Sequence record: NC_041877.1
Length of the DNA stretch: 64,000 bases
Strand: one strand, 5' to 3'
Source: Pseudomonas phage SM1
Both the position numbers and the translations under genes were made by a program. Below are positions 20,501-64,000 of this stretch, in pieces. The notes under the pieces are model-generated. The model worked only from the letters and a program-made list of their open reading frames with translations, was not told the DNA's origin and ran no database searches. Positions within the stretch are counted from its first letter, which is position 1; every line of letters starts with the position of its first letter.

Positions 20501-20557
20501 CAGGGTAGTCAATTTGTGTTGATAGCCATTGGCTACCCTGGTACTTTGCGCACATAC

Positions 20558-20577
20558 GGGGCTTCGGCCCCGTTTTT
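20558..20577 (+). terminator. rho-independent terminator GGGGC-ttcg-GCCCCGTTTTT
   Basis: GC hairpin plus T5 after the tail fibre gene. Confidence 0.65.
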
Positions 20578-20607
20578 GTAACTGAACCCACCAACTAGGA
20601 GAACGGC

Positions 20608-22036: not shown

Positions 22037-22052
22037 GTGCAAACGCTTGCAA
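22037..22052. promoter_or_regulatory. motif copy GTGCAAACGCTTGCAA, between stop of 21548 gene and SD of endolysin
   Basis: Same family. Confidence 0.8.
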
Positions 22053-23614: not shown

Positions 23615-23643
23615 TTGCCTAGTCTTGTCCTTTTCCGTATAAT
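23615..23643 (+). promoter_or_regulatory. sigma70-like promoter TTGCCT-17-TATAAT, 7 nt upstream of motif copy
   Basis: -35 at 23615-23620, 17-nt spacer, -10 TATAAT at 23638-23643. Motif GTGCAAGCGTTTGCAC starts at 23651, which is about +1. Confidence 0.45.
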
Positions 23644-23650
23644 CGTCATC

Positions 23651-23666
23651 GTGCAAGCGTTTGCAC
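23651..23666. promoter_or_regulatory. motif copy GTGCAAGCGTTTGCAC at predicted +1 of promoter 23615-23643; followed by conserved extension TTGCACTAGGTCT
   Basis: Same family. The extension is shared with copy 59454. Confidence 0.8.
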
Positions 23667-28962: not shown

Positions 28963-28965
28963 CTG

Positions 28966-30305
28966 TGAAAGTCACGGCGCACGAAGCCCGCAGATATGCG
29001 GAGGTAGTGGCCGATCTCACTAGGCGGGATGATCTTTACTTTAGCGAATACGTAGAAGTCACTTCTGTACTGGCGAGATTCTGGCCTGAGTTCCTAACGA
29101 TGGCCGAGCTGGCAACCCTCACTTTCATTCTTGGGCGAACGCTCATGTTTCGAAAGAAAGCGGAGTCCATCAGCAAGGCTCATTTTCTGAATGGAGTGAT
29201 TGCGGCAGACGGTACACGGGTTTGTAGCGGCGTAGGAGTGTCACATAACACACTCCGTACAGCTCTCGAAGGGCTGGTAGATAAGGGAATAGTTGATATT
29301 CACGCGTTTTTGGACGGTAAAACCGAGACGATATCGCGTGTTTACGAGGTAAAAACAGCCAAAATAGTGGCTGATAGAGATACCGAAGGGGTTCGAAGTA
29401 TGCTCATCAGGTCCCGGAAAACCATGGAAAAACAGCCAGATAGAGACGGTTTTGAGGAGTCTGGGAGGGGGTCCAAAATTTGGCACACCCCCCTCCAAAA
29501 TTTGGCACACAATAAAGAGATACTACGTATCTCTAAAACATCTTCTAAAGAAGATGTATCCGGATCGGGGGAAAAAGTTGTAGAGCGGGCTTTCAAGCTA
29601 CCTATGGCCAAGAGGGTTAGGCGTGCAAGCGTTTGCACAGAGCCCACTACTATGTCTGCCCGTGAACGGGCAGAGCAGATACTTGGTGCCGCCAAGGCGA
29701 AGCGCAATGATCGGGCGGTGAACACCAAGGTACCTACGAAGAAATGGGAGACCCGAACCCTACAGGCCCTATTGGATAAAGCGCGGGAGTCTGTAGGCAC
29801 CTCGTGCCCTCGCATCACGGTAGTCTCTAAGGGTATCGGGGTACTCCATCGGCGTATGTTGGAAAGCGAGGTAGAAGACGTAGTTGATTTCTTCTCTTGG
29901 GCTCTAACGAACTGGACGTTGGTTGCCAGTGCAAACCGAAAAGCCAAAGCGACCCAGTTGCGTAATAAGGCTACCAAGGCTGCGCAATCGGAAATGCACA
30001 TGGCACCTAACTTCAGTGATCTGGCGTATCGGTTCCCCTACTTCTTCCGGTTCTACCAAGACCGCTGCTATACCGAGAAGCAACTAGCTAGCGAACTGAA
30101 AGCGAAGCAAGAAAAAATACAAACAGCCAAGCGCAAGGAATCCGAAGCCAGCATAGCCCGTCGTAATGAGGTGCGCCGCAGGGACGAGGAAGCGGAACGT
30201 CAGCGTCGCAGGGAAGAAGAGGCATTCCGTAAGCGCAGGGCAGTAATGGCGCAGGATTCTGATGATGATCTGCCAGAGTACGAAGCTCCGGCATGGGGAG
30301 GTTAA
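28966..30305 (+). CDS. putative replication initiator (lambda O-like) with origin embedded in the linker region
   Basis: GTG start after RBS ggggag. N-terminal winged-helix-like domain and a charged C-terminal domain. The coding sequence contains two 17-bp iterons plus AT-rich inverted repeats (29466-29556) and a motif copy (29623-29638). A split into two genes cannot be excluded (internal ATG at 29651). Confidence 0.45.
29466..29556. repeat. putative origin of replication: 2x iteron TCCAAAATTTGGCACAC flanked by G5/C5, then AT-rich segment with two palindromes (AGAGATAC/GTATCTCT, CATCTTC-taaa-GAAGATG)
   Basis: Direct repeats at 29472-29488 and 29494-29510. Inverted repeats at 29516-29534 and 29539-29556. 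They lie inside the initiator gene, as in lambda ori. Confidence 0.55.
29623..29638. repeat. motif copy GTGCAAGCGTTTGCAC inside initiator ORF, about 70 nt downstream of the origin repeats and 13 nt upstream of an internal ATG
   Basis: Same family. Confidence 0.8.
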
Positions 30306-35123: not shown

Positions 35124-35588
35124 ATGGCAATCATGCGCAATCCGCAAGTCCGCCGGCTGCGCCGTCCCGCAGCCACGGTCGAGCGGGAAGACAAGGCGAA
35201 AGCTGAGAAAGAACTCAACACCAAGCTCCAGCTCATTGCGGTTGAGCTAGCTAAGGTCGAGGCGGCGACCGATGCTATGGAAGCTTTGCGCAATCGCGTT
35301 GGTGAGCTTTTGAAAACGCTGGGTAAATCTGACCACGAGTTTGCCGGTATATCGGCAGCCTGGAAAGACGAAATGACCAGGGCCAGCCGTGAAGTCGATC
35401 CGCACAAGCTCTACAACAAGCTCGCAGAGAAGGATTTCTTCGCTGTAGTAAAAGTGAGTTTGGGGGAGCTTGGTAAGGTTCTGACCGAAGACGAAATTGA
35501 TGCTATAGCTAAAACGATACCGGCCACTAAAAAGGGACAAAAGCTGGTCGTGGAGCGTAAGAAGGCGGCAGCCGGGAGGAGGAAATGA
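35124..35588 (+). CDS. hypothetical protein
   Basis: 154-aa charged helical ORF. Confidence 0.45.
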   Translation: MAIMRNPQVRRLRRPAATVEREDKAKAEKELNTKLQLIAVELAKVEAATDAMEALRNRVGELLKTLGKSDHEFAGISAAWKDEMTRASREVDPHKLYNKLAEKDFFAVVKVSLGELGKVLTEDEIDAIAKTIPATKKGQKLVVERKKAAAGRRK

Positions 35589-35776
35589 ATAATTTGCGTG
35601 AGCGTATTCGTAACGTGGTCAATCGTTACCGGGACGCCAGTAGCCGGCCCGACGTTATCGTCTTGCTCGCGGAGGCCGCAGTCGAGATCGACAGCCTAAC
35701 CGACATCATCGCTGCCTACGCTGAGAAAGAAGTGCAAGCGCTTGCACGGGCTAAGGACAAAGAGGAGTCGAAGTAG
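35585..35776 (+). CDS. small hypothetical protein
   Basis: ATGA-coupled. Contains the perfect palindrome GTGCAAGCGCTTGCAC in frame (V-Q-A-L-A-R). Confidence 0.35.
   Translation: MNNLRERIRNVVNRYRDASSRPDVIVLLAEAAVEIDSLTDIIAAYAEKEVQALARAKDKEESK
35732..35747. repeat. motif copy GTGCAAGCGCTTGCAC (perfect palindrome), 30 nt upstream of primase start
   Basis: Same family. In frame V-Q-A-L-A-R within the small ORF. Confidence 0.8.
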
Positions 35777-38395: not shown

Positions 38396-40132
38396 ATGCG
38401 CCCGGCTATCCTAGCGGGCGCCATGAAAATCCCCGTCGCTCGGATTAACGCAAAACTTGTCGAAAAGCATACTACCTACCTCTATAGACCAATGGGGGCG
38501 GAGGATGATATCGAAGTTAAAGCGTTTTTCTACGACGGGGATTTTATATGTGTGCCCAGGCAGTATGGTCTTGCGCTATGCAATAAACTAGGCATTGAGT
38601 GGGAGGACCACACCTCATCCGGGGTACCTGTTTCTTTCCCTAAAGTACCGGTACCTCGCGAATACCAAATCCAGACCTTGGACGATATAGTTCAAGCCTG
38701 TGACAACTACTACGATTTTCTTTTCCGAGCGCACACGGGATGGGGCAAGACCATCGGCGCGCTTATCGTGGCCGCCCGTTTGGGTGTATCTACCCTCATT
38801 ATTGTCGATCAAGATAACTTGGCGGACCAATGGGTAGAGCGGCTCACTGACCCTAGCCTCTTCGGTCTTAACCCAGAGGATATAGGGCGAATTCAGGGAA
38901 AAAAGTGTGACTACGAAGGCAAGCCCGTAACTATTGCGATGGTGCAAACGCTTGCACAAAAAAAATTCGATGAGGAGGTCTACCGCTACCACGGTTTGGT
39001 AATATCGGATGAGGTCCATACTATTGGAGCCCCGACCTTTAGTCAGGTTCTGACTCAGTTCGCGGCTACATGGAGGATTGGGATATCCGCTACTCCGAAA
39101 CGCCGGGACGGTTTGCAGAAGGCTCTAGATCATAACCTGGGCAAGGTAAGGGTGGCCGCTGACAAAGAACACAAAGAGTCTGCGGTATACATGATCTACC
39201 ATGACACCGTTTATTCGTGGTATGGGAATGTGTCGCCGAAGGTTGGACGGATATTGACGGAAATCGCAGACGATGGTTTTCGAAATCTCAAGTTGGCTGA
39301 CGCCGTAGTATGGTTGTACGAGACCGGTAGGGATGTGCTTGTCCTGGGCGACCGAATAGAGCAACTCAAGGAACTCGGTTGTTTGCTGAAATACATGGGC
39401 GTGGAAGAAGATCGCATAGGACTTTATACTGGGGAAGACCCGGTATTCCGTCTTACCAAGGACCCACGTCCTGCGCGCCGCCCGAAAGGTTATGTGCGAG
39501 ATACGGAGTACACTCCTCTGAAATACGAGCGAGTCCGTAAGAAAGTGCCAAAGGCCCGCCTGAAGCAAGTCTTGCGGGAGTCTAAAATTATCCTGGCTAC
39601 GTATGGGATGTTTCAAAAAGGTGTGGATGAACCGAGGTTGGCTGGGGGCGCTGACGCCACGCCGCGAGGAACCTCTGAGCAGCAAATGGGTCGTATCCAG
39701 CGGGAGGTCGCCGGGAAGCATATGCCCATTTGGGTAACTATCGTGGACAGGCAGAACTACCGACTTCTGAACTCGTTCCTAGGGAGGGCTCAGGAGTATG
39801 TCAAAAACAACTCTCGCCTCTTCGAATGGGGCGAAGACGGGGGACTTACTGAATGCGAACCAAAGCGCCTATTCGCCGAGATACGAAACCGAATAAACGA
39901 ACTGAAAGCAATGAGGATCGAAACGAACTCAGACGGTATAAATATGCTAACGACAGCACCCTGCGCGAAGACCAAAGGGCAAAAGCACGAGACCGATATA
40001 CGCGAGTGGGCCAAGCGCCTCTCCCGTCAGCGGTCCGAGGGCGAGGCACGCGAAGGGAAATCACCTTCGAAGGTGCGCCGAGGCCCACCACCATCGAAAC
40101 CTTCAGCATCGCCGAGGCTGCGCAGGCGTTAG
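38396..40132 (+). CDS. SF2 DEAD/DEAH-box DNA helicase (UvsW/RecG-like)
   Basis: Motif I AHTGWGKT, motif II VISDEVH and motif VI QQMGRIQR. In-frame motif copy at 38942-38957 (V-Q-T-L-A-Q). The C-terminal about 90 aa are low complexity and overlapped by a better-looking ORF. Confidence 0.75.
   Translation: MRPAILAGAMKIPVARINAKLVEKHTTYLYRPMGAEDDIEVKAFFYDGDFICVPRQYGLALCNKLGIEWEDHTSSGVPVSFPKVPVPREYQIQTLDDIVQACDNYYDFLFRAHTGWGKTIGALIVAARLGVSTLIIVDQDNLADQWVERLTDPSLFGLNPEDIGRIQGKKCDYEGKPVTIAMVQTLAQKKFDEEVYRYHGLVISDEVHTIGAPTFSQVLTQFAATWRIGISATPKRRDGLQKALDHNLGKVRVAADKEHKESAVYMIYHDTVYSWYGNVSPKVGRILTEIADDGFRNLKLADAVVWLYETGRDVLVLGDRIEQLKELGCLLKYMGVEEDRIGLYTGEDPVFRLTKDPRPARRPKGYVRDTEYTPLKYERVRKKVPKARLKQVLRESKIILATYGMFQKGVDEPRLAGGADATPRGTSEQQMGRIQREVAGKHMPIWVTIVDRQNYRLLNSFLGRAQEYVKNNSRLFEWGEDGGLTECEPKRLFAEIRNRINELKAMRIETNSDGINMLTTAPCAKTKGQKHETDIREWAKRLSRQRSEGEAREGKSPSKVRRGPPPSKPSASPRLRRR
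38942..38957. repeat. motif copy GTGCAAACGCTTGCAC inside helicase CDS (V-Q-T-L-A-Q)
   Basis: Same family. Confidence 0.8.
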
Positions 40133-40362
40133 GCAAGTCGCTGAGTACCTTCCGACGGTGGCTCCGAGAGGACATGCTCCCTGAGCCGTATTTGGAGGAG
40201 ACCAGTTCCGGCTACCACGTCTATAGCCGTGGGGAGCTTGAGGTGATTGCTGCGGTTCTGTCCGAGCATGCGCAAACCTTCGCGAATGCATGCCGGACCC
40301 ATACGCATGTATGGCACCAGATACAGCAGCGCATTAGCGCATATCGCGCCGAACGACTATGA
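40011..40362 (+). CDS. putative MerR-family HTH protein (start uncertain)
   Basis: Alternative frame over the helicase 3' end encodes FSIAEAAQALGKSLSTFRRWLRE...GYHVYSRGELEVIAAVL, which is MerR N-terminal-domain-like. No clear RBS. Confidence 0.3.
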
Positions 40363-43504: not shown

Positions 43505-44119
43505 ATGCGGATACGACGTACTAAGTCTGATGGTCAGTTGTTCGTTCTGGGCGTAGACCCGTCATTGGGGTCTACCGGCTACTGTTATGAGCTTGACGGT
43601 CGCCCGGTAGTGGGTAGGCTCTGTACTAAGTTTCGTGGAATGCAGAGGCTGGAACACCAGTTAAACCAGTTTCGTGGGCTGTTGGATACGGTGATGGAGG
43701 AGGCGACCGATTACCGGATAGTTTGCGTATACGAAGGGTATGCAATCGGCGCCAAGGGGGTTGGTCGTTGGGAATCCGCAGAGTTGGGCGGGCAATTCAA
43801 GCTGGAACTTTACAAACGCGGGATTCCGGTTATCCTAGTGCCTCCTACTACCCTAAAGCTGGTATTCACTGGCAAGGGGAACAGCAAGAAGCCTGCGATG
43901 AAAGCTGCCGCTATTGAGCACTTCGGTGTAGATAGCAGTTTGAATAACGATGAAGTAGACGCGTATGCTTTGTATCGATTGGGCCATGCGTTACTTCACG
44001 GGATCGGACCGGCGGAGTTTTTGCAACGTGCGTTACGGGCGAAAAGTAAGGTAACATTGCACCCAGGCAAGGGAGCCTTCGAGATGCAAGCGCTTGCACA
44101 TTTGGCTTCTGTAGGTTGA
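43505..44119 (+). CDS. RuvC-like Holliday junction resolvase
   Basis: LGVDPSLGSTGY (Asp1), YEGYAIG, and a DEVDAYAL C-terminal acidic motif. In-frame motif copy at the 3' end (M-Q-A-L-A-H). Confidence 0.7.
   Translation: MRIRRTKSDGQLFVLGVDPSLGSTGYCYELDGRPVVGRLCTKFRGMQRLEHQLNQFRGLLDTVMEEATDYRIVCVYEGYAIGAKGVGRWESAELGGQFKLELYKRGIPVILVPPTTLKLVFTGKGNSKKPAMKAAAIEHFGVDSSLNNDEVDAYALYRLGHALLHGIGPAEFLQRALRAKSKVTLHPGKGAFEMQALAHLASVG
44084..44099. repeat. motif copy ATGCAAGCGCTTGCAC at 3' end of RuvC gene (M-Q-A-L-A-H)
   Basis: Same family, perfect 14-mer core. Confidence 0.8.
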
Positions 44120-44201
44120 TTGCGATATACTTTTGACCTACGATCTGCATCGTAAATTCGATAACCAACGACCGGCTTGCCGGTAAAACCAACGAAACAG
44201 G

Positions 44202-45624: not shown

Positions 45625-46335
45625 ATGGCTCTACAACGTAGCCGGCGCTCGGCGTCTTCGTCCAAAACCAACGCGAAGCCCCGACGTGCGGCTGAGCCCG
45701 TACGGATCAAAATCGACTATATCCCTATCGAGGAGATTGTCCCCTACGAGTTCAACGCCCGTAACAATGAGCAGGCCATCGAAGCGGTCAAAAAGTCTAT
45801 TCAGCAATTTGGCTTTCTGAACCCGATTGTCCTCGACGAGAACAACGTGCTGGTCGCGGGCCATACGCGAACGGAAGCGGCCAAGCAACTAGGCTATATC
45901 GAGCTTCCGTTCGTAAGCGCAGCCCACCTTACTCCGGAGCAAGTACAGGCCTTCCGCCTCGTAGACAACAAAGTAGCTGAGATTGCTACATGGGATGACG
46001 CACTCTTGGCGCAGGAAATGTATGCGATCAAGGAGATGTTTGATTTCACTGATTTCGGTTGGGACGCGGCAGAGATCGATTGCCTGGGCCAGCTTGTTTC
46101 TGACGATTGCCTACTCACTGCTGGTCTAGCTACGCCGGAGGAGGATGAAGAAGGTAGCGCCCGCCTTCCTGTGCGGCGTTCCCCGGCAACTGCGCGTATT
46201 GTGATCGGAGAGTTCGTCTTTTTCCGTCCGGCATCCTCAGTTCGCAATTTCCTCGACGGTCTGCGGCGTGCCCACAACGCCGACAGTGCGGCGATGGAAG
46301 AGGATATCGCTAACCGGCTTGGGCTACTGGATTAA
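45625..46335 (+). CDS. ParB-like nuclease-domain protein (ParB/Srx fold)
   Basis: IEEIVPYEFNARNN...IVLDENNVLVAGHTRTEAAKQLG is a ParB N-terminal domain signature. RBS gaggaga. Confidence 0.65.
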   Translation: MALQRSRRSASSSKTNAKPRRAAEPVRIKIDYIPIEEIVPYEFNARNNEQAIEAVKKSIQQFGFLNPIVLDENNVLVAGHTRTEAAKQLGYIELPFVSAAHLTPEQVQAFRLVDNKVAEIATWDDALLAQEMYAIKEMFDFTDFGWDAAEIDCLGQLVSDDCLLTAGLATPEEDEEGSARLPVRRSPATARIVIGEFVFFRPASSVRNFLDGLRRAHNADSAAMEEDIANRLGLLD

Positions 46336-46345
46336 GGAGCACCAA

Positions 46346-47902
46346 ATGGCACTTCGTCAGCGCCGCACCAGGGTGAGTGCAGCCGATAAACTTACCTCGA
46401 TTACTGTCGTCAATGTACCTACGGAGAACCACTCGCCCGACATCAAGAACCCGCGAAAGGCGGACCCTGCGCGTCTGGGCCTGCTTCGGTTGTCTATCGT
46501 CAAATTAGGGTTCCTGATGCCGATATTCGCGCGAGAACAGGACGGAACTTTGTTGTCTGGGCACCAGCGACAAAGGGTATGCCTGGAGGCGGGAATCCCC
46601 ACCATGCCGACCGTGTACGTATCGCTCACGGAGCAGGAGATGATGGGTATCAACATACTCTTCAACCGCGTCACCAACGACTTCAGTGCTTTCGACACAG
46701 GCAGCACCGGAGTGGCCCGGATCAACATGAAACAAACACTGGAAGCGCTGGAGTCTTTGCCCGACTGTGACTTCAGTAACTTCTATGCAAACGCTTGCAA
46801 AAACGAACCGATCAAAGTATTCGCGGCGGGTTGCGTAGACCAGTACGATAAAAAGGCCATTGTCACCGCCGGGGCGTTCGTTCGAATGGGGGTCAAAATC
46901 CCACTCGTAGTCAGTGAGTCTGGGGAGGTAGTAAATGGGGTCCACCGCCTATTCGCCGCTATTGAGAAGGGTTTGGATCAGTGGCCTGTAGTCCGTATCC
47001 CGGATCGCATCGCCGAGGTCGCTAAGATTGTTCTCAACTACCTGAGCATGGACTTCCACATCGACGAGGACTTCAAGGACCTTCTCCGTGGTGGTGCCTT
47101 CCGGCGAGTTTCAAATAACCGAGGTTTGGTGCCGAAGAGTTTTCGTTTCTGGGCCAATGGCGAACGATCTCTACTTGACAGGGATAGCTACAGCACGGAG
47201 TTTTGGCTACGTTTCCGTGAGATACATGGTAACTCCATTCTCGATTTCGGAGCTGGGCTTTGCCGTGTAGCCCCCTACCTGCGGACCAAGGGATTCGAGG
47301 CAATGGATTTCGAGCCCTATCGCGTCGATCCCGTACTTAACGAAGCAGAGCCTAGCCCCGACTATAGCCGGTCCATGGCGAAGCAATTCCTGTCCGCTAT
47401 CGCTGATCCTAGGCACAAATTCGATTCTATTTTTATGTCGGCAGTGATGAATTCGATTCCTTTCCCGGAGGATCGATTGAAGGTATTGGTTATTGTGCAT
47501 GCACTCTGTCGGCTGGATACTTCGGTTTACGGAACGTGCCGAGATATTTCCGATTTCTCCTACGAGTATGGCGGGGTAAGGAACGGTAACTACTTCGTGA
47601 TGGACGGAGAGCCGGGCATACGGTTGGGTGACATCAACTCTAGGCCTAAAATTCAGAAATTCATGACGCAGGACGAAGCTCGTAGCTACTTTGACCGCTT
47701 CTGGAACAAAGTCGAATTTTGGGAGGGTGGCAACGTTTTCTTCTTCCGTTTGTCTGCTCCCAAAGCACCGAATCTGAAAGCTCTGGGCCAGAGTTTGGAT
47801 TTCGAATTTGGCGATCTGCCTTTTCTTGACGGCTCGCGTATGGGTTTAGCTAAAGAGGCTCGTGCGGCTTTCGCAAAGCGATTGGGGCGGGCGATTCCCT
47901 AG
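46346..47902 (+). CDS. fusion: two ParB-like domains plus C-terminal class-I SAM-dependent transferase domain resembling CmoB (carboxymethyltransferase family)
   Basis: ParB motifs LLSGHQRQRV and VVNGVHRLFAA. MTase motif I ILDFGAGL..DFEPYRVDP and the post-II segment FDSIFMSAVMNSIPFPEDRLKVL are close to CmoB ([23 protein letters not shown]). Contains in-frame motif copy at 46785-46800. Confidence 0.6.
   Translation: MALRQRRTRVSAADKLTSITVVNVPTENHSPDIKNPRKADPARLGLLRLSIVKLGFLMPIFAREQDGTLLSGHQRQRVCLEAGIPTMPTVYVSLTEQEMMGINILFNRVTNDFSAFDTGSTGVARINMKQTLEALESLPDCDFSNFYANACKNEPIKVFAAGCVDQYDKKAIVTAGAFVRMGVKIPLVVSESGEVVNGVHRLFAAIEKGLDQWPVVRIPDRIAEVAKIVLNYLSMDFHIDEDFKDLLRGGAFRRVSNNRGLVPKSFRFWANGERSLLDRDSYSTEFWLRFREIHGNSILDFGAGLCRVAPYLRTKGFEAMDFEPYRVDPVLNEAEPSPDYSRSMAKQFLSAIADPRHKFDSIFMSAVMNSIPFPEDRLKVLVIVHALCRLDTSVYGTCRDISDFSYEYGGVRNGNYFVMDGEPGIRLGDINSRPKIQKFMTQDEARSYFDRFWNKVEFWEGGNVFFFRLSAPKAPNLKALGQSLDFEFGDLPFLDGSRMGLAKEARAAFAKRLGRAIP
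46785..46800. repeat. motif copy ATGCAAACGCTTGCAA inside ParB-MTase CDS (Y-A-N-A-C-K)
   Basis: Same family. Confidence 0.8.
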
Positions 47903-47936
47903 CCACTGTAGCTAAGGCGTAGAGACAAGCTGTATA

Positions 47937-47952
47937 GTGCAAGCGTTTGCAT
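47937..47952. promoter_or_regulatory. motif copy GTGCAAGCGTTTGCAT fused to -10-like TATAGT (47933-47938), 16 nt upstream of the cmoA-like start
   Basis: Same family. Confidence 0.8.
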
Positions 47953-47968: not shown

Positions 47969-48706
47969 ATGCTGACAAGAAAAGATGACAGGCCGGTGCA
48001 TATGCCGGCCAACCCAGCTAAGTTTGAATTCGATGCCGAGGTGGCTGCTATTTTTCCGGACATGGCGTGCCGGTCCATACCGGATTTCCTGCGGGCTCAC
48101 GACCTCCATGCGGAGTTATGCAGAGAGTTGTTCGAAGTTGGCCGTAACTCCGTAGCTGACCTGGGCGCCAGTCGCGGCCACTTCCTCGGGGCATTAAGTA
48201 GACGCTACGGTAAAGAGTTCCATGCTTACGCCTGCGACTATTCACTGCCAATGGTTGAGCATCTGCGCAAGGATTTTCCCTGGGCGGATGTGGAGCTGGT
48301 TGATCTGACCGCGCCCACTTTCTTCCATGATCGTCGTACGTATGACGTAGTTAATCTGTCGTACGTATTGCAATTCATCACTCCTGCAATGCAGCGCAGA
48401 GTGCTCGCCAAGGTGGTAGAAATGGTTAGGCCGGGTGGGTTGCTATTTATCGGGTCGAAATACGAGGTGCTTGGACAAGTAGGGGAAATGCTCCATCGTC
48501 AGTACATAGAGTGGAGAATGGAGCGTGGCTACTCTCGTGAGGAGATTGAAGCCAAGACCAAGGCACTAGCCGGAAGTATGTGGCCGCGCACGCGTAATGC
48601 ACTCCTCATCGACTTGAAGGATTTCGGTATGGAGAATATCTCTGATACTACCTACAACATGGTGTTCGGCAATATCGTGTGTCGTAAAGGCGGAGAACGA
48701 GAATGA
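47969..48706 (+). CDS. cmoA: CmoA homolog (carboxy-S-adenosylmethionine synthase family)
   Basis: Full-length similarity to E. coli CmoA. Matching blocks: FDAEVAAIFPDMACRSIP, ADLGASRG, VVNLSYVLQFITP, RPGGLLFIGSKYE and ERGYSREEIEAKTKAL. The first two correspond to FDERVAEVFPDMIQRSVP and YDLGCSLG in E. coli CmoA. A motif copy fused to a -10-like TATAGT lies immediately upstream. Confidence 0.75.
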   Translation: MLTRKDDRPVHMPANPAKFEFDAEVAAIFPDMACRSIPDFLRAHDLHAELCRELFEVGRNSVADLGASRGHFLGALSRRYGKEFHAYACDYSLPMVEHLRKDFPWADVELVDLTAPTFFHDRRTYDVVNLSYVLQFITPAMQRRVLAKVVEMVRPGGLLFIGSKYEVLGQVGEMLHRQYIEWRMERGYSREEIEAKTKALAGSMWPRTRNALLIDLKDFGMENISDTTYNMVFGNIVCRKGGERE

Positions 48707-49545
48707 CAGATCGGACCGAAGATGGGCGTCGCCCAGTTGCGCGCCGCAATTTGCGCCGGGTGCGGGGTGGGGCACGCTTCGCCTCCAACTCTGGCAGTAG
48801 TAACTTGCGAACTCCACGAGATTTCGATGAGCAGGAGCACGATGACGTAGATGACGCCATTGATCCCCTCGCCGTACATCGCGGTGTAGTATCCCGTGCT
48901 CGTGCAGATGATGCCGAGCCTGGGACGGATGTCTCTCCGGCTCAGCGGATGTTTGATGTGCAGCGAAATGCCCCAGCCAGTGTTTCACGGGAATACCGCC
49001 TGAATCTAGTTGGCCGGTTGTTGATGCGCAAGATTCCATTGGATCGGATCGCCCAACAACTGAACGTGTCTGTATCGACGGTAGAGAAAGATAGGGCGGC
49101 CTGGAAAAAGATGCTAGCTGAACGGGCCCGCCAATTCGATGTGAACGAGTACATCGGCATTCAGTCGGAGTTCTACGACGAGGTGAGCGGTCAGGCAATG
49201 CAGATCGCCTCTATGGCAGCGGGTGAGAATGCCGTACCTACGGCCATGCGTTTGGCTGCGATGCGGACTGCGCTGGCTGGCCAAGCCGACAAGACTCGTA
49301 CACTACAGTCTGCCGGCGTATTTGAGGCCGCGCGCTTCCGCCGAACTACGGACGGCTCTGCCATGAGCGATGTACAGATGCTTATGGCTCGGACTATGGA
49401 AGCTCTGGAAGACCTGATGCAGGCTGACGAGCCTCCACCTCCGCCGCCGCGCGGTGGGCCCCCGACAACCCGCCGACGTGACGGAAGCGGTTTCGACGAT
49501 CTGACGTTGGATGACCCGGAGGAAGGGGAGGTTATGGAGCTATGA
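48703..49545 (+). CDS. putative terminase small subunit (HTH DNA-binding)
   Basis: Directly upstream of, and ATGA-coupled to, the large terminase. HTH-like RIAQQLNVSVSTVEKDR. Confidence 0.5.
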   Translation: MTDRTEDGRRPVARRNLRRVRGGARFASNSGSSNLRTPRDFDEQEHDDVDDAIDPLAVHRGVVSRARADDAEPGTDVSPAQRMFDVQRNAPASVSREYRLNLVGRLLMRKIPLDRIAQQLNVSVSTVEKDRAAWKKMLAERARQFDVNEYIGIQSEFYDEVSGQAMQIASMAAGENAVPTAMRLAAMRTALAGQADKTRTLQSAGVFEAARFRRTTDGSAMSDVQMLMARTMEALEDLMQADEPPPPPPRGGPPTTRRRDGSGFDDLTLDDPEEGEVMEL

Positions 49546-51473
49546 ACGTGAGTCCCATGAAGAAAACACGCCGTGTTCAAGCTTTTCTGCGCACCATAGA
49601 AAGCGTGTCGAAGGATATCGATAATGCGTTTTTTGGCCTGCTCTACCGTACGGCCATGGAGCGCATGGTCGATGGGGAGGCTACGCTGTTCGAGTTCCTT
49701 GGGCAGCTAGAGCATATGCCTGTGAGCATTGAAACCTTCCTCGACAGCGCGGAGTTCTTGGGCGCTACTGACTTGGTGATGTGGCCCGAGGTTCGAAAGG
49801 CAATCGTCGAGGAAAATCAGAACTGGTGGCGAGGCCTCGATACCGCTCCTGGCGCTCTCGGTGGGGCCTTTGATACGGCCTGCCTGATGGGTTGTACGCG
49901 TTCTGGTAAGTCTACCCAGGCCATCGTGGGGTTCATGTACCAGCTTCACATTCTGTTGTGTATGAAGAACCCGCAAGGCTGGTACGGGCTGCCCTCCGCT
50001 ACCTCGATTGTCATGGCGATCATGGGCGCCAAACCTCATGTTACCAAGAAAGTGGTTTACGCGCCGATGAAGAAGTATATCGAGCGTATGCCATGGTTCC
50101 AGAAGTATGGAGTACCGGACAAGAATATCGACAGCGAAATGCTGTTCATCGAAAAGAACATTCGTGTTGTGCCGGTAGCGGGTAATGAAGACGCGGTTCT
50201 CGGTGAAGCCTTGATCGCGTGTTTGATTGACGAGATCAACTTCATGAACGTGGTGCAGAAGTCCAAAAAGGCAGAAGTATCCACGGGGCGCTCTGGCGTA
50301 TACGATCAGGCGCAAACGGTCTACGATACCGTGGTACGTCGTCGGCGTGGTACTTTCCCTAAACGGTACCCCCAGATCGGCATCATCTACGCCAGTTCGT
50401 CTACCCGGTACAAAGGTGATTTCACTGATAAGCTGAAGGCGGAGACCGAGAAGTTCAACCATAACAACGTCTACATTTTCAACAAGAAGCAGTACGAAGT
50501 TCAGCCCAAAGAAAACTTCTGCGGAGAGACGTTCCGTCTACTGATCGGCAATGATGTACAGCACGATACTCGTGTTCTAGGGCCGGACGAGGCGGTGCCG
50601 GAGGGGTCCTGGGTAGAGCTGGTGCCTATCGAATATTTGCCGGACTTCCAGCGTAAGCCCTATGACGCCATGCGAGACGTTCTTGGTATATCCTCGAACG
50701 CGATCAGCCCGTTCATCAAAATGCGCTACCGGGTCTACGAGTGCGTTGAACTCGGCCACGAGAAGCGGTTGGAGTCGTTCCTTGAGAAAGATCACGTCAT
50801 TCTTGGCGTTGACGGTATGCCAAAAGTTCGACATGGGCACGTATGCACCAACCCGAGCAAGCCTCGGTACGTCCATATCGACCTGTCACGTACTGGAGAC
50901 CGCTGCGGTGTAGCGATGGTTCGCTTCGACGGGATGAGTAACTTTGAGCGGGCCGGGGACCAGTCAGAGCGGTTGCCGTTGGCTACGGTGGAGATGGCAC
51001 TTTCCATCGAGCCAGATGCGAATAACGAGATTCAGATTGCAGAGGTGCGGTCCTGGGTTCGATCCCTTATTAAAGTGCATGGCTACCCGATTAAAGGCGT
51101 TTCGTACGACGGCTTTGATAGCCGCGAGTCCATCCAGCAATGGCGTAAGGACCGCATGCCGTCCAAGGAGGTTTCGGTGGATCGTACCAGCGCGCCGTAC
51201 AAGCAATTCCGCGATGCACTCTACGACAGGCGTGTAGCCCTTCTCGATGATCCCATCTTGCTGAATGAAATATTGGAGTTGGAGTACGACACGCATAAGG
51301 ACAAGATAGATCACCCGATGATGGGTAGTAAGGACGTATCCGATGCTGTATGCGGCGCGTATTGTAATATGCTGGAACGCCGAAGCACTTGGGCTGCCGT
51401 TCACGAGATCGATGGCGGTGATATGGCCGGCAGGTTCGAAGGCGAACGTTTTGACGATGATCGACGTTTTTAA
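49542..51473 (+). CDS. terminase large subunit
   Basis: Walker A-like GCTRSGKST. C-terminal RNaseH-like nuclease region with conserved acidic residues (HIDLSRTGDRCG...). 643 aa. Confidence 0.85.
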   Translation: MNVSPMKKTRRVQAFLRTIESVSKDIDNAFFGLLYRTAMERMVDGEATLFEFLGQLEHMPVSIETFLDSAEFLGATDLVMWPEVRKAIVEENQNWWRGLDTAPGALGGAFDTACLMGCTRSGKSTQAIVGFMYQLHILLCMKNPQGWYGLPSATSIVMAIMGAKPHVTKKVVYAPMKKYIERMPWFQKYGVPDKNIDSEMLFIEKNIRVVPVAGNEDAVLGEALIACLIDEINFMNVVQKSKKAEVSTGRSGVYDQAQTVYDTVVRRRRGTFPKRYPQIGIIYASSSTRYKGDFTDKLKAETEKFNHNNVYIFNKKQYEVQPKENFCGETFRLLIGNDVQHDTRVLGPDEAVPEGSWVELVPIEYLPDFQRKPYDAMRDVLGISSNAISPFIKMRYRVYECVELGHEKRLESFLEKDHVILGVDGMPKVRHGHVCTNPSKPRYVHIDLSRTGDRCGVAMVRFDGMSNFERAGDQSERLPLATVEMALSIEPDANNEIQIAEVRSWVRSLIKVHGYPIKGVSYDGFDSRESIQQWRKDRMPSKEVSVDRTSAPYKQFRDALYDRRVALLDDPILLNEILELEYDTHKDKIDHPMMGSKDVSDAVCGAYCNMLERRSTWAAVHEIDGGDMAGRFEGERFDDDRRF

Positions 51474-51488
51474 TGCAAGCGTTTGCAC
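51473..51488. promoter_or_regulatory. motif copy ATGCAAGCGTTTGCAC overlapping terminase stop TAA, immediately 5' of SD of dcd
   Basis: Same family. Preceded by TTTTAAT. Confidence 0.8.
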
Positions 51489-53907: not shown

Positions 53908-53923
53908 ATGCAAGCGTTTGCAC
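53908..53923. promoter_or_regulatory. motif copy ATGCAAGCGTTTGCAC, 35 nt upstream of tRNA-Arg
   Basis: Same family. Confidence 0.8.
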
Positions 53924-53958: not shown

Positions 53959-54030
53959 GGGGTGGTAGCTCAGGGGTAGAGCGAGCGTTTTCTAAACGCT
54001 TGGGCGTGGGTTCGAATCCCACTCACTCCA
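53959..54030 (+). tRNA. tRNA-Arg (anticodon UCU)
   Basis: Hand-folded cloverleaf. Acceptor GGGGTGG/TCACTCC (two G-U pairs), D-arm GCTC-AGGGGTA-GAGC, anticodon stem AGCGT/ACGCT with loop TTTCTAA, T-arm GTGGG-TTCGAAT-CCCAC, discriminator A. Confidence 0.75.
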
Positions 54031-54093
54031 TCTAGAAGTTTAGATGCCACGGAAGGCGTCTACCTAGAATTGCTGTAATCCCTTCAAAGGGGA

Positions 54094-54133
54094 AACGTGG
54101 CGGACGGGGGTTCGATTCCCCCCAGCTCCACCA
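54094..54133 (+). other. tRNA-like 3' fragment (T-arm GGGGG-TTCGATT-CCCCC, acceptor 3' strand CAGCTCC, A, CCA) without a matching 5' half
   Basis: Canonical T-loop and encoded CCA. No complementary 5' acceptor (GGAGCTG) within 200 nt upstream. Confidence 0.35.
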
Positions 54134-54457
54134 AAGACATTCTCGGCCAGCACGTTCGTTCCTAGGTGTGAGAAGGTGGCTGCGATACTGCCGGGTGGTT
54201 GCTAGGAACATCATTCGGAAAGTCCAGCTAGAGAGTGTCTCTGATGGGGCTGTTCAGGATTCGACGCCGCGCGTACTTAGCGAAGGCAGCAAGGAAAGGC
54301 GACGCACCTTGACGCGCGCAAATCGATAAACGCCAACGATACTTCGTTCGACGTTCGCCTCGCAGCCTAAACCCCTGCGGAGTGACGGGTAGCCTCCGGG
54401 CTTCCTCCCCCTGCTACGGCTAGTACCCGTAGTTGCCTTGGAACAGAAAGGGGAGGG

Positions 54458-54533
54458 CCTTCGCGTAGGCGCACTGACGGTCGGCACTCCACCGCACGCC
54501 TGTCAGGGGGCTGTCAGTGCGCCTACGCGAAGG
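54458..54533. repeat. perfect 21-bp inverted repeat CCTTCGCGTAGGCGCACTGAC / GTCAGTGCGCCTACGCGAAGG with 34-nt spacer
   Basis: Arms at 54458-54478 and 54513-54533. Lies in an ORF-free region. Confidence 0.7.
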
Positions 54534-55684: not shown

Positions 55685-55733
55685 GCGATGGAATGGAAGT
55701 ACGTACTCTGATTGAGAATGCCAACGACGAGAC

Positions 55734-56045
55734 ATGCCTATGACCGACCACGCAGAGTTGCGGAGGCTTGCTGAACAGGCTAGCTATTTCGATATAACTA
55801 CGGATTGGATGTTCAAGCCAGTTATAGCCTTTCAAAAAGCATCCGACCCCAAGATCGTCCTCGCCCTTCTGGACGAGATCGACAGGCTCAAGTCAGAAAA
55901 CGATGCGCTGCGCAAGGATGCTGCGCGATACCGCGCATTGCGGCAGGAGGGTCGTGGAGTTGTAGTTGTACGAGACCGAGTATCTCATTTGTTCGAAAAC
56001 AAGCTCGACGCTGCAATTGATGCAATCATAGAAGGAGATAAGTAG
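55734..56045 (+). CDS. hypothetical protein
   Basis: 103-aa ORF. Confidence 0.4.
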   Translation: MPMTDHAELRRLAEQASYFDITTDWMFKPVIAFQKASDPKIVLALLDEIDRLKSENDALRKDAARYRALRQEGRGVVVVRDRVSHLFENKLDAAIDAIIEGDK

Positions 56046-58054
56046 TGGCTGATCAAGAGAATACTCAACCTACCCAAAGGGAAGGGTTGTGTGGGCCTAC
56101 GATAGTAGCCTATTTGCTCGTTAGACCGGATGGAAGCCTGTCGATGGATGCAGTCAGGCACAAGCCGAAACAACCCGCCGTTGCAGTTATGGCCGTAGAT
56201 GAGCACGCTGCTAGTGTTGCCAGATGGGCAGAAATGTTCAATCGTGCTATTGAAGGGCATGGGCATGTTTTTCCGCGTGCGGATGGAGTAAAGATGCGGT
56301 GCGGCGGCCCTGGGCTCTGCTCGAAATGCACTGCCGACGCTTCTCTCGTCCATCCGTGCCCGGCACATCCTGCGGTAGAGCAGGCAGGCGGAGATGCGCG
56401 CAAACTGTCAGACCTCGGTAACGAATTGCACAACCTTTCGTGCTCGATCATTCACGAAAACGAGGAATGGGCTGAACAGATCGGCGGCATTGCCCGCGAG
56501 CTTTGGAATTGGCCACAAGCCCGCGCTGCCCTGGCGCACGACGAACAAGAACAGGCAGCACATGAACTCAGGCTGCTGGCAAACGCACTTGGCGAGTGCA
56601 TTCAGGCGGCTGGCATTACTGCGCCCGGAGTGCCATTGACTGGGCCGCAGCTTCTCATGTTCGCCGAAGACCTGAAGCGCGATCTGCAACGCTCCTCCCT
56701 AGCGCAACCCTCCCCGAAGTGCGCGACCTGCAACGGCTCGAAAGTCGTTTCCACGACGGACACCGATCACAACGGCGACTACATCGAAGCGCCCTGTCCG
56801 AAGTGCTGCGGCACTGGCGAAGCAGATTCCGGTGGCGCCCACCCATGGGGAGAGCCGGTCTTGATCCCCTGTGACTGCGAGACAGAGCAGGCAGAGCCGG
56901 AACTGGAGCCGCATATACCTGCACAGAACATCGCTGAGGCCGCAATAGAGCAGTTGATTAAGTCTGGCGCCAAACACTATCAGGAATTCCATTTCGACCT
57001 CCACCTTGATGGTCAGGAAGGGGCACGCCCTGTTGTCGTGACAGTAGCGTTTTCTGATGGGCCGTCTGCGCACGAACTACGCATGAAAGCAGAGCAAGAG
57101 CGCGACGCCGCTCTGGCCGAAGTCGAGCGCCTGAGTGAGTCAAAAGGTGACCCTGTTGGCAGCCTCGAAAAGTGCATGAAAGTGATGTACGAGCGCGACG
57201 AAAACGCTAAGCGGCTGGAAGCCGCCCTGGCCAGGGTGGCGGAGTTGGAAGGGAAGTTGACGGACTGGGTGCACGAAGGGTTCCGGCTCAACGAGGCGCT
57301 AGCGGTCGCCAAGGCTCAGCACAGCGTGCCGGATGACGACATGATCTTGCAGATTTTTGCCGATAATGCTGAGCACTCGGAGCAAGGCGACGAGCATGGT
57401 TACTGTATCGTGCGCGAACAGCATGCTCAAGCAATTGCGCGAAAACTGCTCGCCGCCGCGCCCGGCAACTCGGCTCAGCACAGCGTACCGGAGGGCTGGA
57501 AGCTGGTTCCGATTGAGCCGCTTCTCAACATGATGAGCGACAAGGACCACGACACCCGAATTACGGCTGAGCGCCAACTGCTTTCGATACTCGCCGACGC
57601 GCCCGCCCAGGCTCAGCACAGCGCGCCGGAAGTGTCAGGGATCGGACGCGACACTGGTCATCCGCGCGCGGTCGTTCTGTACCTACGCAAGGAGCCGACC
57701 GACGATGATCTGCGAGCCATCCATGATGCTCTGCGCTCTCTCGCCGCCGCGCCCGGCAAGGAAGTGCCACAGGCATGGCTCGACGTGCAGGCAGAGCGCC
57801 GCCGGCAGATCACCGCCGAGGGATGGACGCCGGAGCACGACGACCTCTATTGCGCCGCCGAACTTCCGCGCGCCGCAGCGGCATACATCCTCAACGGAGC
57901 CAATGACGAGGCGCCGGCTATCTGGCCGTTCTCGGCGAAGTGGTGGAAACCCCGCGACGCGCGTGCCAACTACGTGCGGGCAGCCGCCCTGATCCTGGCC
58001 GAGATCGAGCGACTGGACCGCGCCGCGCCCGGTAAGGATGTAGGCCATGAGTAA
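56045..58054 (+). CDS. DnaJ-type CxxCxGxG zinc-finger protein with C-terminal tandem repeats (AAAPG..AQHSVPE)
   Basis: CATCNGSKVV...CPKCCGTGE is a DnaJ-CR-like motif. Three to four repeats of about 45 aa (AQHSVP / AAAPGK) are also visible at the DNA level. Confidence 0.5.
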   Translation: MADQENTQPTQREGLCGPTIVAYLLVRPDGSLSMDAVRHKPKQPAVAVMAVDEHAASVARWAEMFNRAIEGHGHVFPRADGVKMRCGGPGLCSKCTADASLVHPCPAHPAVEQAGGDARKLSDLGNELHNLSCSIIHENEEWAEQIGGIARELWNWPQARAALAHDEQEQAAHELRLLANALGECIQAAGITAPGVPLTGPQLLMFAEDLKRDLQRSSLAQPSPKCATCNGSKVVSTTDTDHNGDYIEAPCPKCCGTGEADSGGAHPWGEPVLIPCDCETEQAEPELEPHIPAQNIAEAAIEQLIKSGAKHYQEFHFDLHLDGQEGARPVVVTVAFSDGPSAHELRMKAEQERDAALAEVERLSESKGDPVGSLEKCMKVMYERDENAKRLEAALARVAELEGKLTDWVHEGFRLNEALAVAKAQHSVPDDDMILQIFADNAEHSEQGDEHGYCIVREQHAQAIARKLLAAAPGNSAQHSVPEGWKLVPIEPLLNMMSDKDHDTRITAERQLLSILADAPAQAQHSAPEVSGIGRDTGHPRAVVLYLRKEPTDDDLRAIHDALRSLAAAPGKEVPQAWLDVQAERRRQITAEGWTPEHDDLYCAAELPRAAAAYILNGANDEAPAIWPFSAKWWKPRDARANYVRAAALILAEIERLDRAAPGKDVGHE

Positions 58055-58545: not shown

Positions 58546-59038
58546 ATGTGGTTTGTACCGCTACCGGCTAGAACGGAGTGTAAACCTTGGCCGCCCATTT
58601 GAGCCTAGGTCAGTCGCCTTCATAGGGGTCAATCCCTCTACTGCCGATGCTGTATCAGATGACCCTACTATCCGGAAGATGGTCGGCTTCGCCCGGCAAT
58701 GGGGCTATAGCCGTATCCTTGTCGGTAATCTGTTTGCTTACCGCGCGGCAGATGTGCGGGAGTTGCGTCGAGTCTATCTCGATCCGTTCGGGGCCGGAAC
58801 TCTGTTCGAAACCGAGTCTGTCTATCTGCTTGATATTTTGCAAGAAGCGGAGCTGTTGGTACCTTGCTGGGGTGATCGTAAAAAGCTTCCCAGGGTGTTG
58901 CGTGAGCGTGTTATTGACGTTCTCAGCATGCTGCGCCAGCAGCTTAAGCCTGTTTGCCATCTTGGCTTGACCGCTGGGGGAGACCCCAAACACCCGCTCT
59001 ATCTACCATACTCTACGGAGCTACAGCTATGGGAGTGA
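58523..59038 (+). CDS. DUF1643-like protein
   Basis: YRYRLERS...AFIGVNPSTADAVSDDPTIRKMVGFARQWGYSRILVGNLFAYRAADVRELR matches my recollection of the DUF1643 N-terminal signature (LNPSTAD..DDPT..). Not checked against a database. Confidence 0.5.
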   Translation: MMSAVLSECGLYRYRLERSVNLGRPFEPRSVAFIGVNPSTADAVSDDPTIRKMVGFARQWGYSRILVGNLFAYRAADVRELRRVYLDPFGAGTLFETESVYLLDILQEAELLVPCWGDRKKLPRVLRERVIDVLSMLRQQLKPVCHLGLTAGGDPKHPLYLPYSTELQLWE

Positions 59039-59454
59039 TAAAGAAAATAGTCGGTAAGGTTACAATCGCACGTAACTCCAATGGCCGTATGAGCATTCAA
59101 GTAGTCGATAGCGCGTCTAAGCTTCAAGTGATCGATATAGACATGGACTTGACTTTGTTCGCTATGGCCCTTACGGGCATTGCCCGCCAAGAGGCAGAAT
59201 GTGAAGTCAACATCGATCCGGACATTGGCCAGCTTCTGGTTCGGGAACCGCGCAGCGTGGTAGTGCCCGGTAGTGTACCTACTGAGCAGCGGGAAAAATA
59301 CTTGTTGGAGCATTGTAAAGAGGATGGCTGGCGTGTAGACCCGTATCTGCGTTCTCAGAACTCTGTACAGCACGTACCAGAGGGTGTGCGTTTGAACTAC
59401 CACGTATACAAGTATGTGGATTCCGTTGCTTCTCGGAAAAGAATCAGGCGGTAG
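59029..59454 (+). CDS. hypothetical protein
   Basis: RBS ggagctacagct-ATG. Its stop codon overlaps the first base of a motif copy. Confidence 0.4.
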   Translation: MGVIKKIVGKVTIARNSNGRMSIQVVDSASKLQVIDIDMDLTLFAMALTGIARQEAECEVNIDPDIGQLLVREPRSVVVPGSVPTEQREKYLLEHCKEDGWRVDPYLRSQNSVQHVPEGVRLNYHVYKYVDSVASRKRIRR

Positions 59455-59469
59455 TGCAAACGCTTGCAC
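59454..59469. promoter_or_regulatory. motif copy GTGCAAACGCTTGCAC overlapping stop of 59029 gene; followed by TTGCACTAGGTCT extension
   Basis: Same family. Confidence 0.8.
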
Positions 59470-63663: not shown

Positions 63664-63984
63664 AGGTAGAAAGGAAATCCTGTGTGGGCATGGACGCTCC
63701 CCTACTAAATCCTGTGTGGGCATACGCCTTCCCCTACTGTCCAGATTCTGTGTGGGCATACGGGCTCCCCTACTACACCCCAGTGCAGTTTTGTGCTTAT
63801 TCGCCGGCGTCAGTGTTCGATTACTGGCAGCTCCCGCTGGCCGCTGGGTGGTCTCCTTCTGGTTACTGGTGTTGAGCTGGTGAACTCTTCTTGTGCTACC
63901 CCACTGACTGTCAGATTTAGCTTTCTGGTAGTAGGCCTCTGGTATTCGCTCGCTGTAGCAGCACACAATCCCATATCGCGTATA

Positions 63985-64000
63985 ATGCAAGCGTTTGCAC
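63985..64000. promoter_or_regulatory. motif copy ATGCAAGCGTTTGCAC fused to TATAAT (63981-63986) at window end
   Basis: Same family. Confidence 0.8.

Follow-up and report, generated by a model that had tools for sequence, protein, structure and literature searches.

Palindromes of 13-16 bp that are scattered over a replicon and bound by members of the ParB family are known from KorB-OB of IncP plasmids, Noc-NBS and parS. The site treated here, a 16-bp near-palindrome with the consensus R-TGCAA-GCG[C/T]-TTGCA-Y, is unrelated to parS, NBS or OB and occurs at 19 sites, among them 47937-47952, of a 64,000-nucleotide stretch of Pseudomonas phage SM1 (NC_041877.1), in the following referred to as the window. 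Repetition of a single site over a phage genome has been described for Cluster A mycobacteriophages, the repressors of which bind more than 20 sites in promoters and short intergenic spaces (PMC9283540), and on a bacterial chromosome for RacA, a MerR-like winged helix connected by a flexible linker to a coiled coil, which at 25 chromosomal regions recognizes a palindrome of 14 bp, the terminal TG/CA steps of which are essential (PMC4914108). In T4-like phages, a repeated intergenic stem-loop combined with an early promoter (PeSL) is found at gene boundaries (PMC4122927). The window is 99.6% identical to the Pseudomonas phages vB_PaeS_FBPa45, UF_RH6, PaMx31 and PA_L9, all belonging to the genus Samunavirus, a group of P. 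aeruginosa siphophages with genomes of about 93 kb. Whole-genome counts given below refer to the complete FBPa45 genome, the gene map of which was transferred onto the window.

The nearest functional analogue would be the operator/stoperator arrays of Cluster A with their L5 gp71-type repressors, as in both cases many copies of one site are distributed over the genome, short intergenic spaces included (31 copies in 93 kb here). In Cluster A, however, one phage protein reads all sites, whereas protein binding is postulated here, and stoperators are asymmetric 13-mers bound by a monomer and oriented with transcription, in contrast to a palindrome found in both orientations. Also unlike Cluster A, the present array is almost half intragenic, strikingly even, and built on arms common to phages of alpha- and gamma-proteobacteria. 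The likeness to RacA and its ram sites, serving kinetochore-like anchoring in Bacillus subtilis, lies in the array core TGCAA-N4-TTGCA, likewise a 14-bp palindrome with terminal TG/CA steps, and in the many sites. Differences are the ram sequence itself (TGACGCCGGCGTCA), the clustering of ram sites near the origin versus an even spread (coefficient of variation (CV) of the gaps 0.5), and the nature of RacA as a host sporulation protein, whereas the candidate discussed below is phage-encoded and matches RacA weakly at the structural level (E ~1e-2, predicted local distance difference test (pLDDT) score 65). PeSL elements resemble promoter cassettes of Rhizobium phage L338C, a relative carrying the array, but their stem-loops are variable in sequence and restricted to the space between genes of hyperplastic regions, whereas here the arms are invariant and copies are also present in core genes; moreover, only one or two copies in the window lie beside a promoter. 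ParB-family arrays are brought to mind by two ParB_N proteins encoded in the phage, in which, however, no ParB-type helix-turn-helix (HTH) was recognized. Finally, the Samunavirus allele fits TGnAAnCGnTTnCA, a form of LacI/GalR operators (MalR, CcpA cre, PurR, CytR), with published MalR and CcpA sites being 0-2 bases off. The central CG, however, is invariant in Samunavirus only, with TCAA/TTGA in Stenotrophomonas phage DLP5, YR in Vibrio phage SIO-2 and a free centre in L338C, and no LacI-type HTH was found in the phage: the PROSITE-type pattern does not occur in any of the six frames translated from the phage and its relatives, and PF00356 has no match among 50 Samunavirus proteins scanned.

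An evenly spaced palindrome array in Samunavirus and distant relatives

In the window, 37 strand-matches with at most three mismatches to the 16-mer correspond to the 19 sites, compared with 0.43 matches expected and a maximum of three in shuffled sequence. The palindrome pointed out in the preliminary description of this DNA is, hence, real and strongly selected. Over the full FBPa45 genome, 31 copies with at most one core mismatch are present, about one per 3 kb, and the gaps between them (mean 3012 nt, minimum 735, maximum 6109, CV 0.52) are more even than in any of 20,000 random placements (P<5e-5). Eighteen of these copies are classed as intergenic within a non-coding share of only 8.7% of the genome (coding density 91%), while the other 13 are inside annotated coding sequences (CDS) in all three reading frames, two of them at a start codon and two near a gene end. 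Selection on the motif acts at the nucleotide level, independent of coding. Individual copies are listed without strand; considering only the asymmetric centre (GCGT or its complement ACGC), 11 copies are found in each orientation, besides nine with the symmetric GCGC. This mixed orientation exists despite genes lying essentially all on one strand, as the annotated genes in the window are all on the plus strand and the entire FBPa45 genome has just two minus-strand CDS. Next to the centre, one arm at most varies, with nine perfect, 22 single-variant and no double-variant copies in Samunavirus. An extended 20-bp palindrome (TA-16mer-TA) was rejected, the flank counts being asymmetric and the upstream T-A-R representing a stop codon.

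Within the window, nine of the 19 copies are intragenic, and the other ten are located in gaps between genes or share 1-3 nt with a stop or start codon. The copy at 47937-47952 (GTGCAAGCGTTTGCAT) is intergenic, 34 nt past the stop of the gene at 46346-47902 and 16 nt before the ATG (47969) of an S-adenosylmethionine (SAM)-methyltransferase gene. Typically, the offset between the upstream stop codon and the beginning of an intergenic copy is 0 or -1 nt and, where gaps are short, the copy ends 0-4 nt before a Shine-Dalgarno sequence. This applies to copy 15030-15045 (GTGCAAGCGTTTGCAC), directly following the TAA at 15027-15029 and preceding GGAGG and the ATG at 15056, to 22037-22052 (GTGCAAACGCTTGCAA), directly after the stop of 21548-22036 and before AGGAG and the ATG (22065) of a lysis enzyme, and to 51473-51488 (ATGCAAGCGTTTGCAC), the first base of which is the last base of the TAA stop of the TerL-like gene 49542-51473 and which is followed within 9 nt by GGAG and the ATG of dcd (51498). 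Likewise, 20485-20500 (GTGCAAGCGTTTGCAC) directly follows the TGA of 17512-20484, with an intrinsic terminator at 20556-20581 and then a gene at 20608, and 59454-59469 (GTGCAAACGCTTGCAC) shares its first base with the end of the TAG stop of 59029-59454, the next gene starting 123 nt on. Other copies outside genes are 23651-23666 (GTGCAAGCGTTTGCAC), 53908-53923 (ATGCAAGCGTTTGCAC; part of an extended non-coding region, with tRNA-Arg(TCT), 53959-54030, beginning 36 nt downstream) and, at the window's end, 63985-64000 (ATGCAAGCGTTTGCAC; in a 362-nt intergenic region opening the early-gene block), whereas 3839-3854 (ATGCAAACGCTTGCAC) contains the ATG start of gene 3839-4117. The intragenic copies are 1616-1631 (GTGCAAACGCTTGCAC, in 1333-1995), 12904-12919 (the perfect palindrome GTGCAAGCGCTTGCAC, in 12247-13962), 29623-29638 (GTGCAAGCGTTTGCAC, in 28965-30305), 35732-35747 (again GTGCAAGCGCTTGCAC, in the final 45 nt of 35585-35776 and 32 nt before the primase ATG at 35780), 38942-38957 (GTGCAAACGCTTGCAC, in the helicase gene 38396-40132), 44084-44099 (ATGCAAGCGCTTGCAC, in the final 36 nt of the RuvC-like gene 43505-44119), 46785-46800 (ATGCAAACGCTTGCAA, in the ParB_N-methyltransferase gene 46346-47902), 8389-8404 (CTGCAAGCGCTTGCAA, perfect over the 14-bp core, with atypical flanking bases, in the tape-measure-size gene 5038-10290) and the degenerate copy 11458-11473 (GGGCAAGCGATTGCAC), the membership of which is doubtful due to two core mismatches.

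Exact-pattern scans of IMG/VR revealed three uncultured lineages in which the same core, TGCAAGCG[C/T]TTGCA, reaches a density of 0.25-0.6 per kb; their GC contents are 40% (contigs 3300033066_000460 and _000147), 44% (3300032132_000009, with 22 exact copies in 56 kb) and 60% (3300022665_000158). The core is also numerous in several smaller contigs. The lineages share no nucleotide similarity with the window, and their portal, capsid, polymerase, ParB_N or replication proteins are 20-39% identical. Half of their copies are intragenic, and TAG-TGCAAG or TAA-TGCAAG junctions are again followed by a Shine-Dalgarno sequence and ATG. Cultured relatives, identified via the portal protein, bear arrays with other centres. 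DLP5 shows 31 copies of TGCAAT-YR-ATTGCA (CV 0.48), a large share of them within annotated genes, and an uncultured 99.5-kb contig (L110) has seven copies of this allele in 20 kb. In SIO-2, a relaxed-pattern scan gave 14 copies of TGCAAT-NN-ATT[G/T]CA; 11 sites carry TGCAAT/TGAAAT arms, one is perfect, and double variants are absent. L338C possesses 55 copies of TGCAAC-N(1-2)-GTTGCA with a free centre in 100 kb (CV 0.54), the 13-bp form (3-nt centre) being accepted as well as the 14-bp form (4-nt centre) and mostly intragenic. Arms are conserved over very distant phages, while centres are lineage-specific; the clade-level element is accordingly TGCAA-N3/4-TTGCA, its position relative to promoters not being conserved. 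Literature searches with motif strings and phage groups did not find a description of the array, so that a clade-wide, evenly spaced palindrome array of this kind appears to be undescribed.

Promoter context of the motif copies

In the preliminary description, the motif had been interpreted as a repressor operator covering the -10/+1 region of sigma70 promoters, by which one phage factor would co-regulate modification genes, dcd, the AAA cluster and tRNA. The hexamers on which this was based are largely present. TATAGT at 47933-47938 and TATAAT at 63981-63986 both overlap the adjacent 16-mer by 2 nt, and the two copies concerned, 47937-47952 and 63985-64000, lie in longer intergenic regions heading gene blocks. 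The sigma70-like promoter candidate TTGCCT-17-TATAAT at 23615-23643 on the plus strand (10 of 12 matches) was confirmed and detected independently in a sigma70 promoter scan; motif copy 23651-23666 starts 7 nt downstream of its -10 element, at about +1, and the ATG of the AAA ATPase gene (23721) is found another 54 nt on. Here, a well-matching sigma70-like promoter adjoined by the motif precedes the AAA-ATPase/replication block. TTTAAT before dcd also exists, albeit at 51469-51474, 1 nt off, and the TerL-like gene terminates with the TAA contained in it (51471-51473).

As a layout of the whole array, in contrast, operator-over-promoter does not hold. A two-hexamer sigma70-like promoter, with -35 and -10 elements 16-18 bp apart, precedes only one of the 19 copies. 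For TATAGT at 47933 and TATAAT at 63981 the scan gave no acceptable -35 element, and it predicted no promoter at these copies or at 51469. Spacing between -10 hexamer and motif is inconstant, varying from a 2-nt overlap to a 7-nt gap to lack of any hexamer, and copies are not restricted to the 5' ends of transcription units, as the nine intragenic copies and those located between a stop codon and a terminator demonstrate. With comparable criteria, 23 promoter candidates were obtained on the plus strand of FBPa45, one with the motif just downstream and another (TTGGCT-18-TATACT, 44102-44131) beginning 2 nt after copy 44084-44099. In a census of 168 sites from six lineages, a -10-like hexamer with at least five of six matches is present just upstream of 17 sites (10%), compared with 6.6% in random background and 3/168 (1.8%) on the mirror side. 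This asymmetry would favor a promoter link, but the majority of the fused hexamers read xxTAAT or xxTAGT, in which the final T belongs to the motif core and the three bases before it form a stop codon, TAA or TAG. Nor is the geometry conserved among homologous phages, an outcome that the preliminary description itself had named as speaking against its model. In L338C, 14 copies are located 7-12 nt upstream of the -35 element, not over the -10 element, of a conserved early promoter (TTGACAaaggatcggttc..gtTAGATT), forming cassettes of palindrome, 7-12 nt, promoter and the Shine-Dalgarno sequence GGAGAACCAC (e.g., L112:9697-9760); many of these promoter-linked copies are also found 0-7 nt past the upstream stop codon. 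Intergenic copies of the uncultured relatives abut stop codons and Shine-Dalgarno sequences. Control of many gene classes by one phage factor is a reasonable idea, while operators placed over sigma70 promoters are very unlikely to explain the element; a constant promoter geometry is absent, and promoter fusion is real at two or three copies, incidental and not element-defining. A sigma54 promoter was also considered, but manual alignment to TGGCAC-N5-TTGC fails at the GG/−24 element.

Gene content of the window and a candidate binder

Annotation with Pfam and PHROGs assigned to the window a tail/lysis block, the AAA ATPase gene mentioned above, genes for replication and recombination (DnaB, PolA with a uracil-DNA glycosylase (UDG)-like domain, primase, SF2 helicase and RecA), Hjc- and RuvC-like resolvases, an exonuclease, the two ParB_N proteins, SAM-methyltransferases, the TerL-like protein, dcd and PhoH; a phage RNA polymerase was not seen in this annotation. 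The most promising candidate for binding the array is a 169-aa MerR/RacA-like protein encoded on the plus strand at 39853-40362, found by searching with a profile of the proteins named "transcriptional regulators" in DLP5 and SIO-2. Its open reading frame (ORF) overlaps the 3' end of the helicase ORF 38396-40132 by 280 nt in another frame and is preceded 9 nt upstream by the Shine-Dalgarno-like GGGGGA. Public Samunavirus GenBank records annotate just its last 62-73 residues, whereas full-length homologues are 62-65% identical. The order helicase, MerR-like gene, small conserved ORF and RecA is also found in DLP5, SIO-2, L338C and uncultured relatives. While the protein itself gave no direct Pfam hit, homologues match MerR_1 (3e-6 for DLP5) and PF13411 (65%-identical P0005). 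An AlphaFold model (pLDDT 65) predicts a winged HTH followed by a 27-residue helix, and its top Foldseek match in the PDB is the RacA DNA-binding domain on DNA (probability 1.0, E ~1e-2), with MerR-family regulators next. Assignment of this protein as the array binder is tentative, as its gene was not detected in the examined sequence of three uncultured lineages (see below). Searching for related loci with a profile of the MerR-like alignment retrieved DLP5 itself and one new contig only, and a weak MerR match in L081 proved to be due to the MerR-like N-terminus of a serine recombinase.

Alternative site-binding or spreading proteins might be the ParB_N-domain protein at 45625-46335 on the plus strand, with Noc as best PDB sequence match, and the second ParB_N protein at 46346-47902. 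ParB_N is present in three of four lineages with the GC allele and is the sole non-structural, non-polymerase family common to three of them. It was set aside as prime binder and kept as an alternative, as no recognizable HTH follows the ParB_N domain in either protein and ParB_N is ubiquitous in phages.

Several further features of the window deserve mention. The family A DNA polymerase (32155-35061) bears its UDG-superfamily domain at the N-terminus. The TerL-like gene sits in the replication/modification block (48703-51473), distant from portal and capsid genes, and is preceded by a gene for a 280-aa protein with a weak HTH_7 match, possibly a small terminase, plus those of the two ParB_N proteins. 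Beside tRNA-Arg (53959-54030), a transfer-messenger RNA (tmRNA)-like gene at 54019-54410 was detected with Rfam models beta_tmRNA (111 bits) and tmRNA_permuted (118.6 bits), both above gathering score; ARAGORN predicts a permuted tmRNA at 54041-54461 with the tag peptide ANDTSFDVRLAA. At about 55700-58050, the window departs from FBPa45, with ORFs 55734-56045 and 56045-58054 (669 aa) instead of a minus-strand and a shorter gene. Three iteron-like direct repeats of about 33 bp (CTGTGTGGGCAT…CTCCCCTACTA, periods 32 and 36) at 63680-63776 are located about 200 nt upstream of the final motif copy, where the early-gene block begins. Just beyond the window end, the 15-mer TCACCCAGAGGGGAT is found directly upstream of early genes (L004:13809-13823 and five more places in FBPa45) and may be an extended ribosome-binding or regulatory element. 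In the P. aeruginosa assembly GCA_047288295.1, the phage represents its own contig of 93,390 bp (DBEUXY010000017.1), which could mean a carrier or episomal state or contamination. In the GenBank record of UF_RH6 (OQ383211), product names are displaced against the genes they should describe, so that, for instance, the PhoH-like gene is labelled "tail length tape-measure protein" and both dcd and the TerL-like gene are labelled "minor tail protein"; these names were for this reason not usable as gene identities.

Explanations of the array and their implications

Conserved arm sequence together with variable centre, free orientation and intragenic copies points to recognition of duplex DNA by a protein with two-fold symmetry, and invariant arms flanking an unread centre are the signature of a dimeric DNA-binding protein. 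We favor, at a probability somewhat short of even, that each copy serves as a binding site, in duplex DNA, for a symmetric protein encoded by the phage and active across the whole genome. While the array itself, with its statistics, even spacing, conserved arms and lack of a constant promoter geometry, is observed, protein binding, the identity of the binder and an effect on transcription or DNA organization are inferred. The element at 47937-47952 is one unit of this genome-wide array, the arms TGCAA/TTGCA of which would be read by a two-fold symmetric phage protein ignoring the central 3-4 bp, with the MerR/RacA-like winged-helix protein of 39853-40362 as best candidate. Regularly spaced bound protein would mark the whole phage chromosome, and the bound array may function as a dispersed operator or "stoperator"-like silencer or insulator, as a DNA-organizing anchor, or as both. 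Copies coinciding with promoters could act as ordinary operators; candidates are the copy near +1 at 23651 and the one adjoining a -35 element at 44084, and perhaps also those with a -10-like hexamer (47933, 63981).

Several observations weigh against this duplex-DNA explanation. Adjacency to stop codons is also seen in long intergenic regions (four of 12 versus about 0.25 expected), which a pure DNA array does not predict, and four stop-adjoining copies precede an intrinsic terminator (20485 in the window, as described above, and 2431, 16646 and 92753 in FBPa45). The tolerance of L338C for 13- and 14-bp forms would be disallowed for rigid dimers, while RacA-like tethered domains might allow it. 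The MerR-like gene was not detected in the examined sequence of the three uncultured lineages sharing the exact Samunavirus motif, and with the moderate confidence of the model and the E value of its Foldseek match, structural support for the candidate is weak. In addition, samunaviruses are reported to be lytic (PMC10281142), weakening a lysogeny-type silencing role. As precedents in favor of the duplex-DNA explanation, there are the Cluster A arrays, and DLP5 and DLP3, both related phages, are temperate and maintained as phagemids (PMC7326821).

The main rival to a duplex-DNA array is an RNA-level element, with the palindrome forming a 5-6-bp hairpin at cistron boundaries that would be bound by a phage or host RNA-binding protein or RNase and might mark or stabilize mRNA 3' ends, direct intercistronic processing or serve as translational operator at the ribosome-binding site. 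The tight fit of copies between stop codon and Shine-Dalgarno sequence (15030, 22037, 51473), the AUG start codon contained in two copies (3839 in the window, 8639 in FBPa45), the four copies between stop and terminator, the position of the motif, in some cases, at the apex of a longer terminator hairpin (3300033066 lineage, L338C), and the 3- or 4-nt centre allowed in L338C would all agree with such a role. The hairpin, however, is weak (-5.6 kcal/mol, and -3.5 for the AT-centred allele), and ribosomes would melt it at the 13 of 31 copies inside annotated CDS. Arm sequence is kept, whereas pairing is not: among eight single-arm variants tallied by inspection, one would form a G·U pair on the sense strand and variants are uncompensated, and the one-arm variants of SIO-2, if folded, would have a fixed mid-stem mismatch, a C·U or A·G clash. 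Furthermore, the variable part would be the loop, the usual feature for protein recognition, orientation is unbiased although genes are co-directional, even spacing is not expected of gene-boundary signals, and a search with Rfam 15 gave nothing at motif sites, the tmRNA models at 54019-54410 being the only window hits at gathering score. Taken together, this makes an RNA element unlikely. As for an intrinsic terminator formed by the motif itself, this was rejected due to the weak hairpin and lack of a T-run on the gene-sense side of window copies; the terminator scan matched a copy just once, on the minus strand (15045-15030), and real terminators follow downstream of some copies.

A recombination linker or mobile cassette boundary, comparable to PeSL or attC, would place palindromes at gene ends for shuffling genes among related phages. 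In line with this, the motif is tied to ORF 3' ends in all lineages, motif-sharing phages have little else in common, and 14 early genes of L338C bear a repeated, PeSL-like cassette of palindrome, 7-12 nt and TTGACAaaggat…TAGATT; copies inside core genes, even spacing, and arms that are identical across genomes of 40-60% GC over very long divergence, in contrast to the variable PeSL stem-loops, render it improbable. A single-stranded DNA hairpin, used as lagging-strand priming or loading site or as a Chi-like signal for the phage helicase/exonuclease/RecA module, could account for the regularity of about 3 kb, the independence of orientation and coding, and the tolerance of both palindrome lengths, and a module of DnaB, primase, PolA, helicase, RecA and resolvase is kept in FBPa45, DLP5, SIO-2, L338C and the 3300033066 lineage. 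We consider it highly improbable in view of the weak stem, the arm mismatch in SIO-2, the unexplained stop-codon adjacency, and the 3300032132 lineage, which has the densest array yet no detectable homologue of the replication module in 95% of its sequence. To our knowledge, no Chi or primase site in the form of a 14-bp palindrome has been described. Hardly credible is a decoy or hijacked operator of a host LacI/GalR-type regulator (PurR/CytR/MalR-like): the Samunavirus form does fit TGnAAnCGnTTnCA and near-identical MalR and CcpA sites are experimentally supported (PMC4451989, PMC8359418), but DLP5, SIO-2 and L338C lack the central CG, one allele is shared by phages that differ widely in GC content and presumably in host, and the perfect 16-mer gave, among the matches listed from 185,579 bacterial genomes, only single chance-level ones.

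Within the duplex-DNA explanation, a more specific version is conceivable, though doubtful, in which TGCAA-N3/4-TTGCA is a clade-wide "bar-code" read by a conserved RacA/MerR-like protein, that is, a phage kinetochore or condensation system and not a gene-specific operator. Its role would be to organize, insulate or anchor the phage chromosome, whether replicating or episomal, in a clade of 80-110-kb siphoviruses of alpha- and gamma-proteobacteria comprising Samunavirus, Delepquintavirus, SIO-2-like phages, L338C and several uncultured lineages.

For annotation, the results imply that -10-like hexamers beside the motif are mostly stop codons, and that the candidate regulator gene is truncated in every public annotation seen. 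The array also predicts where to look in chromatin immunoprecipitation, transcript-end or Hi-C data. The clade is widespread and little studied, and includes therapeutic phages of P. aeruginosa and S. maltophilia as well as phagemid-type temperate phages; its invariant arms and lineage-specific centres represent a natural experiment in the co-evolution of protein and site. If one protein reads the roughly 30 evenly spaced sites, these phages would possess a simple system for genome-wide control or organization.

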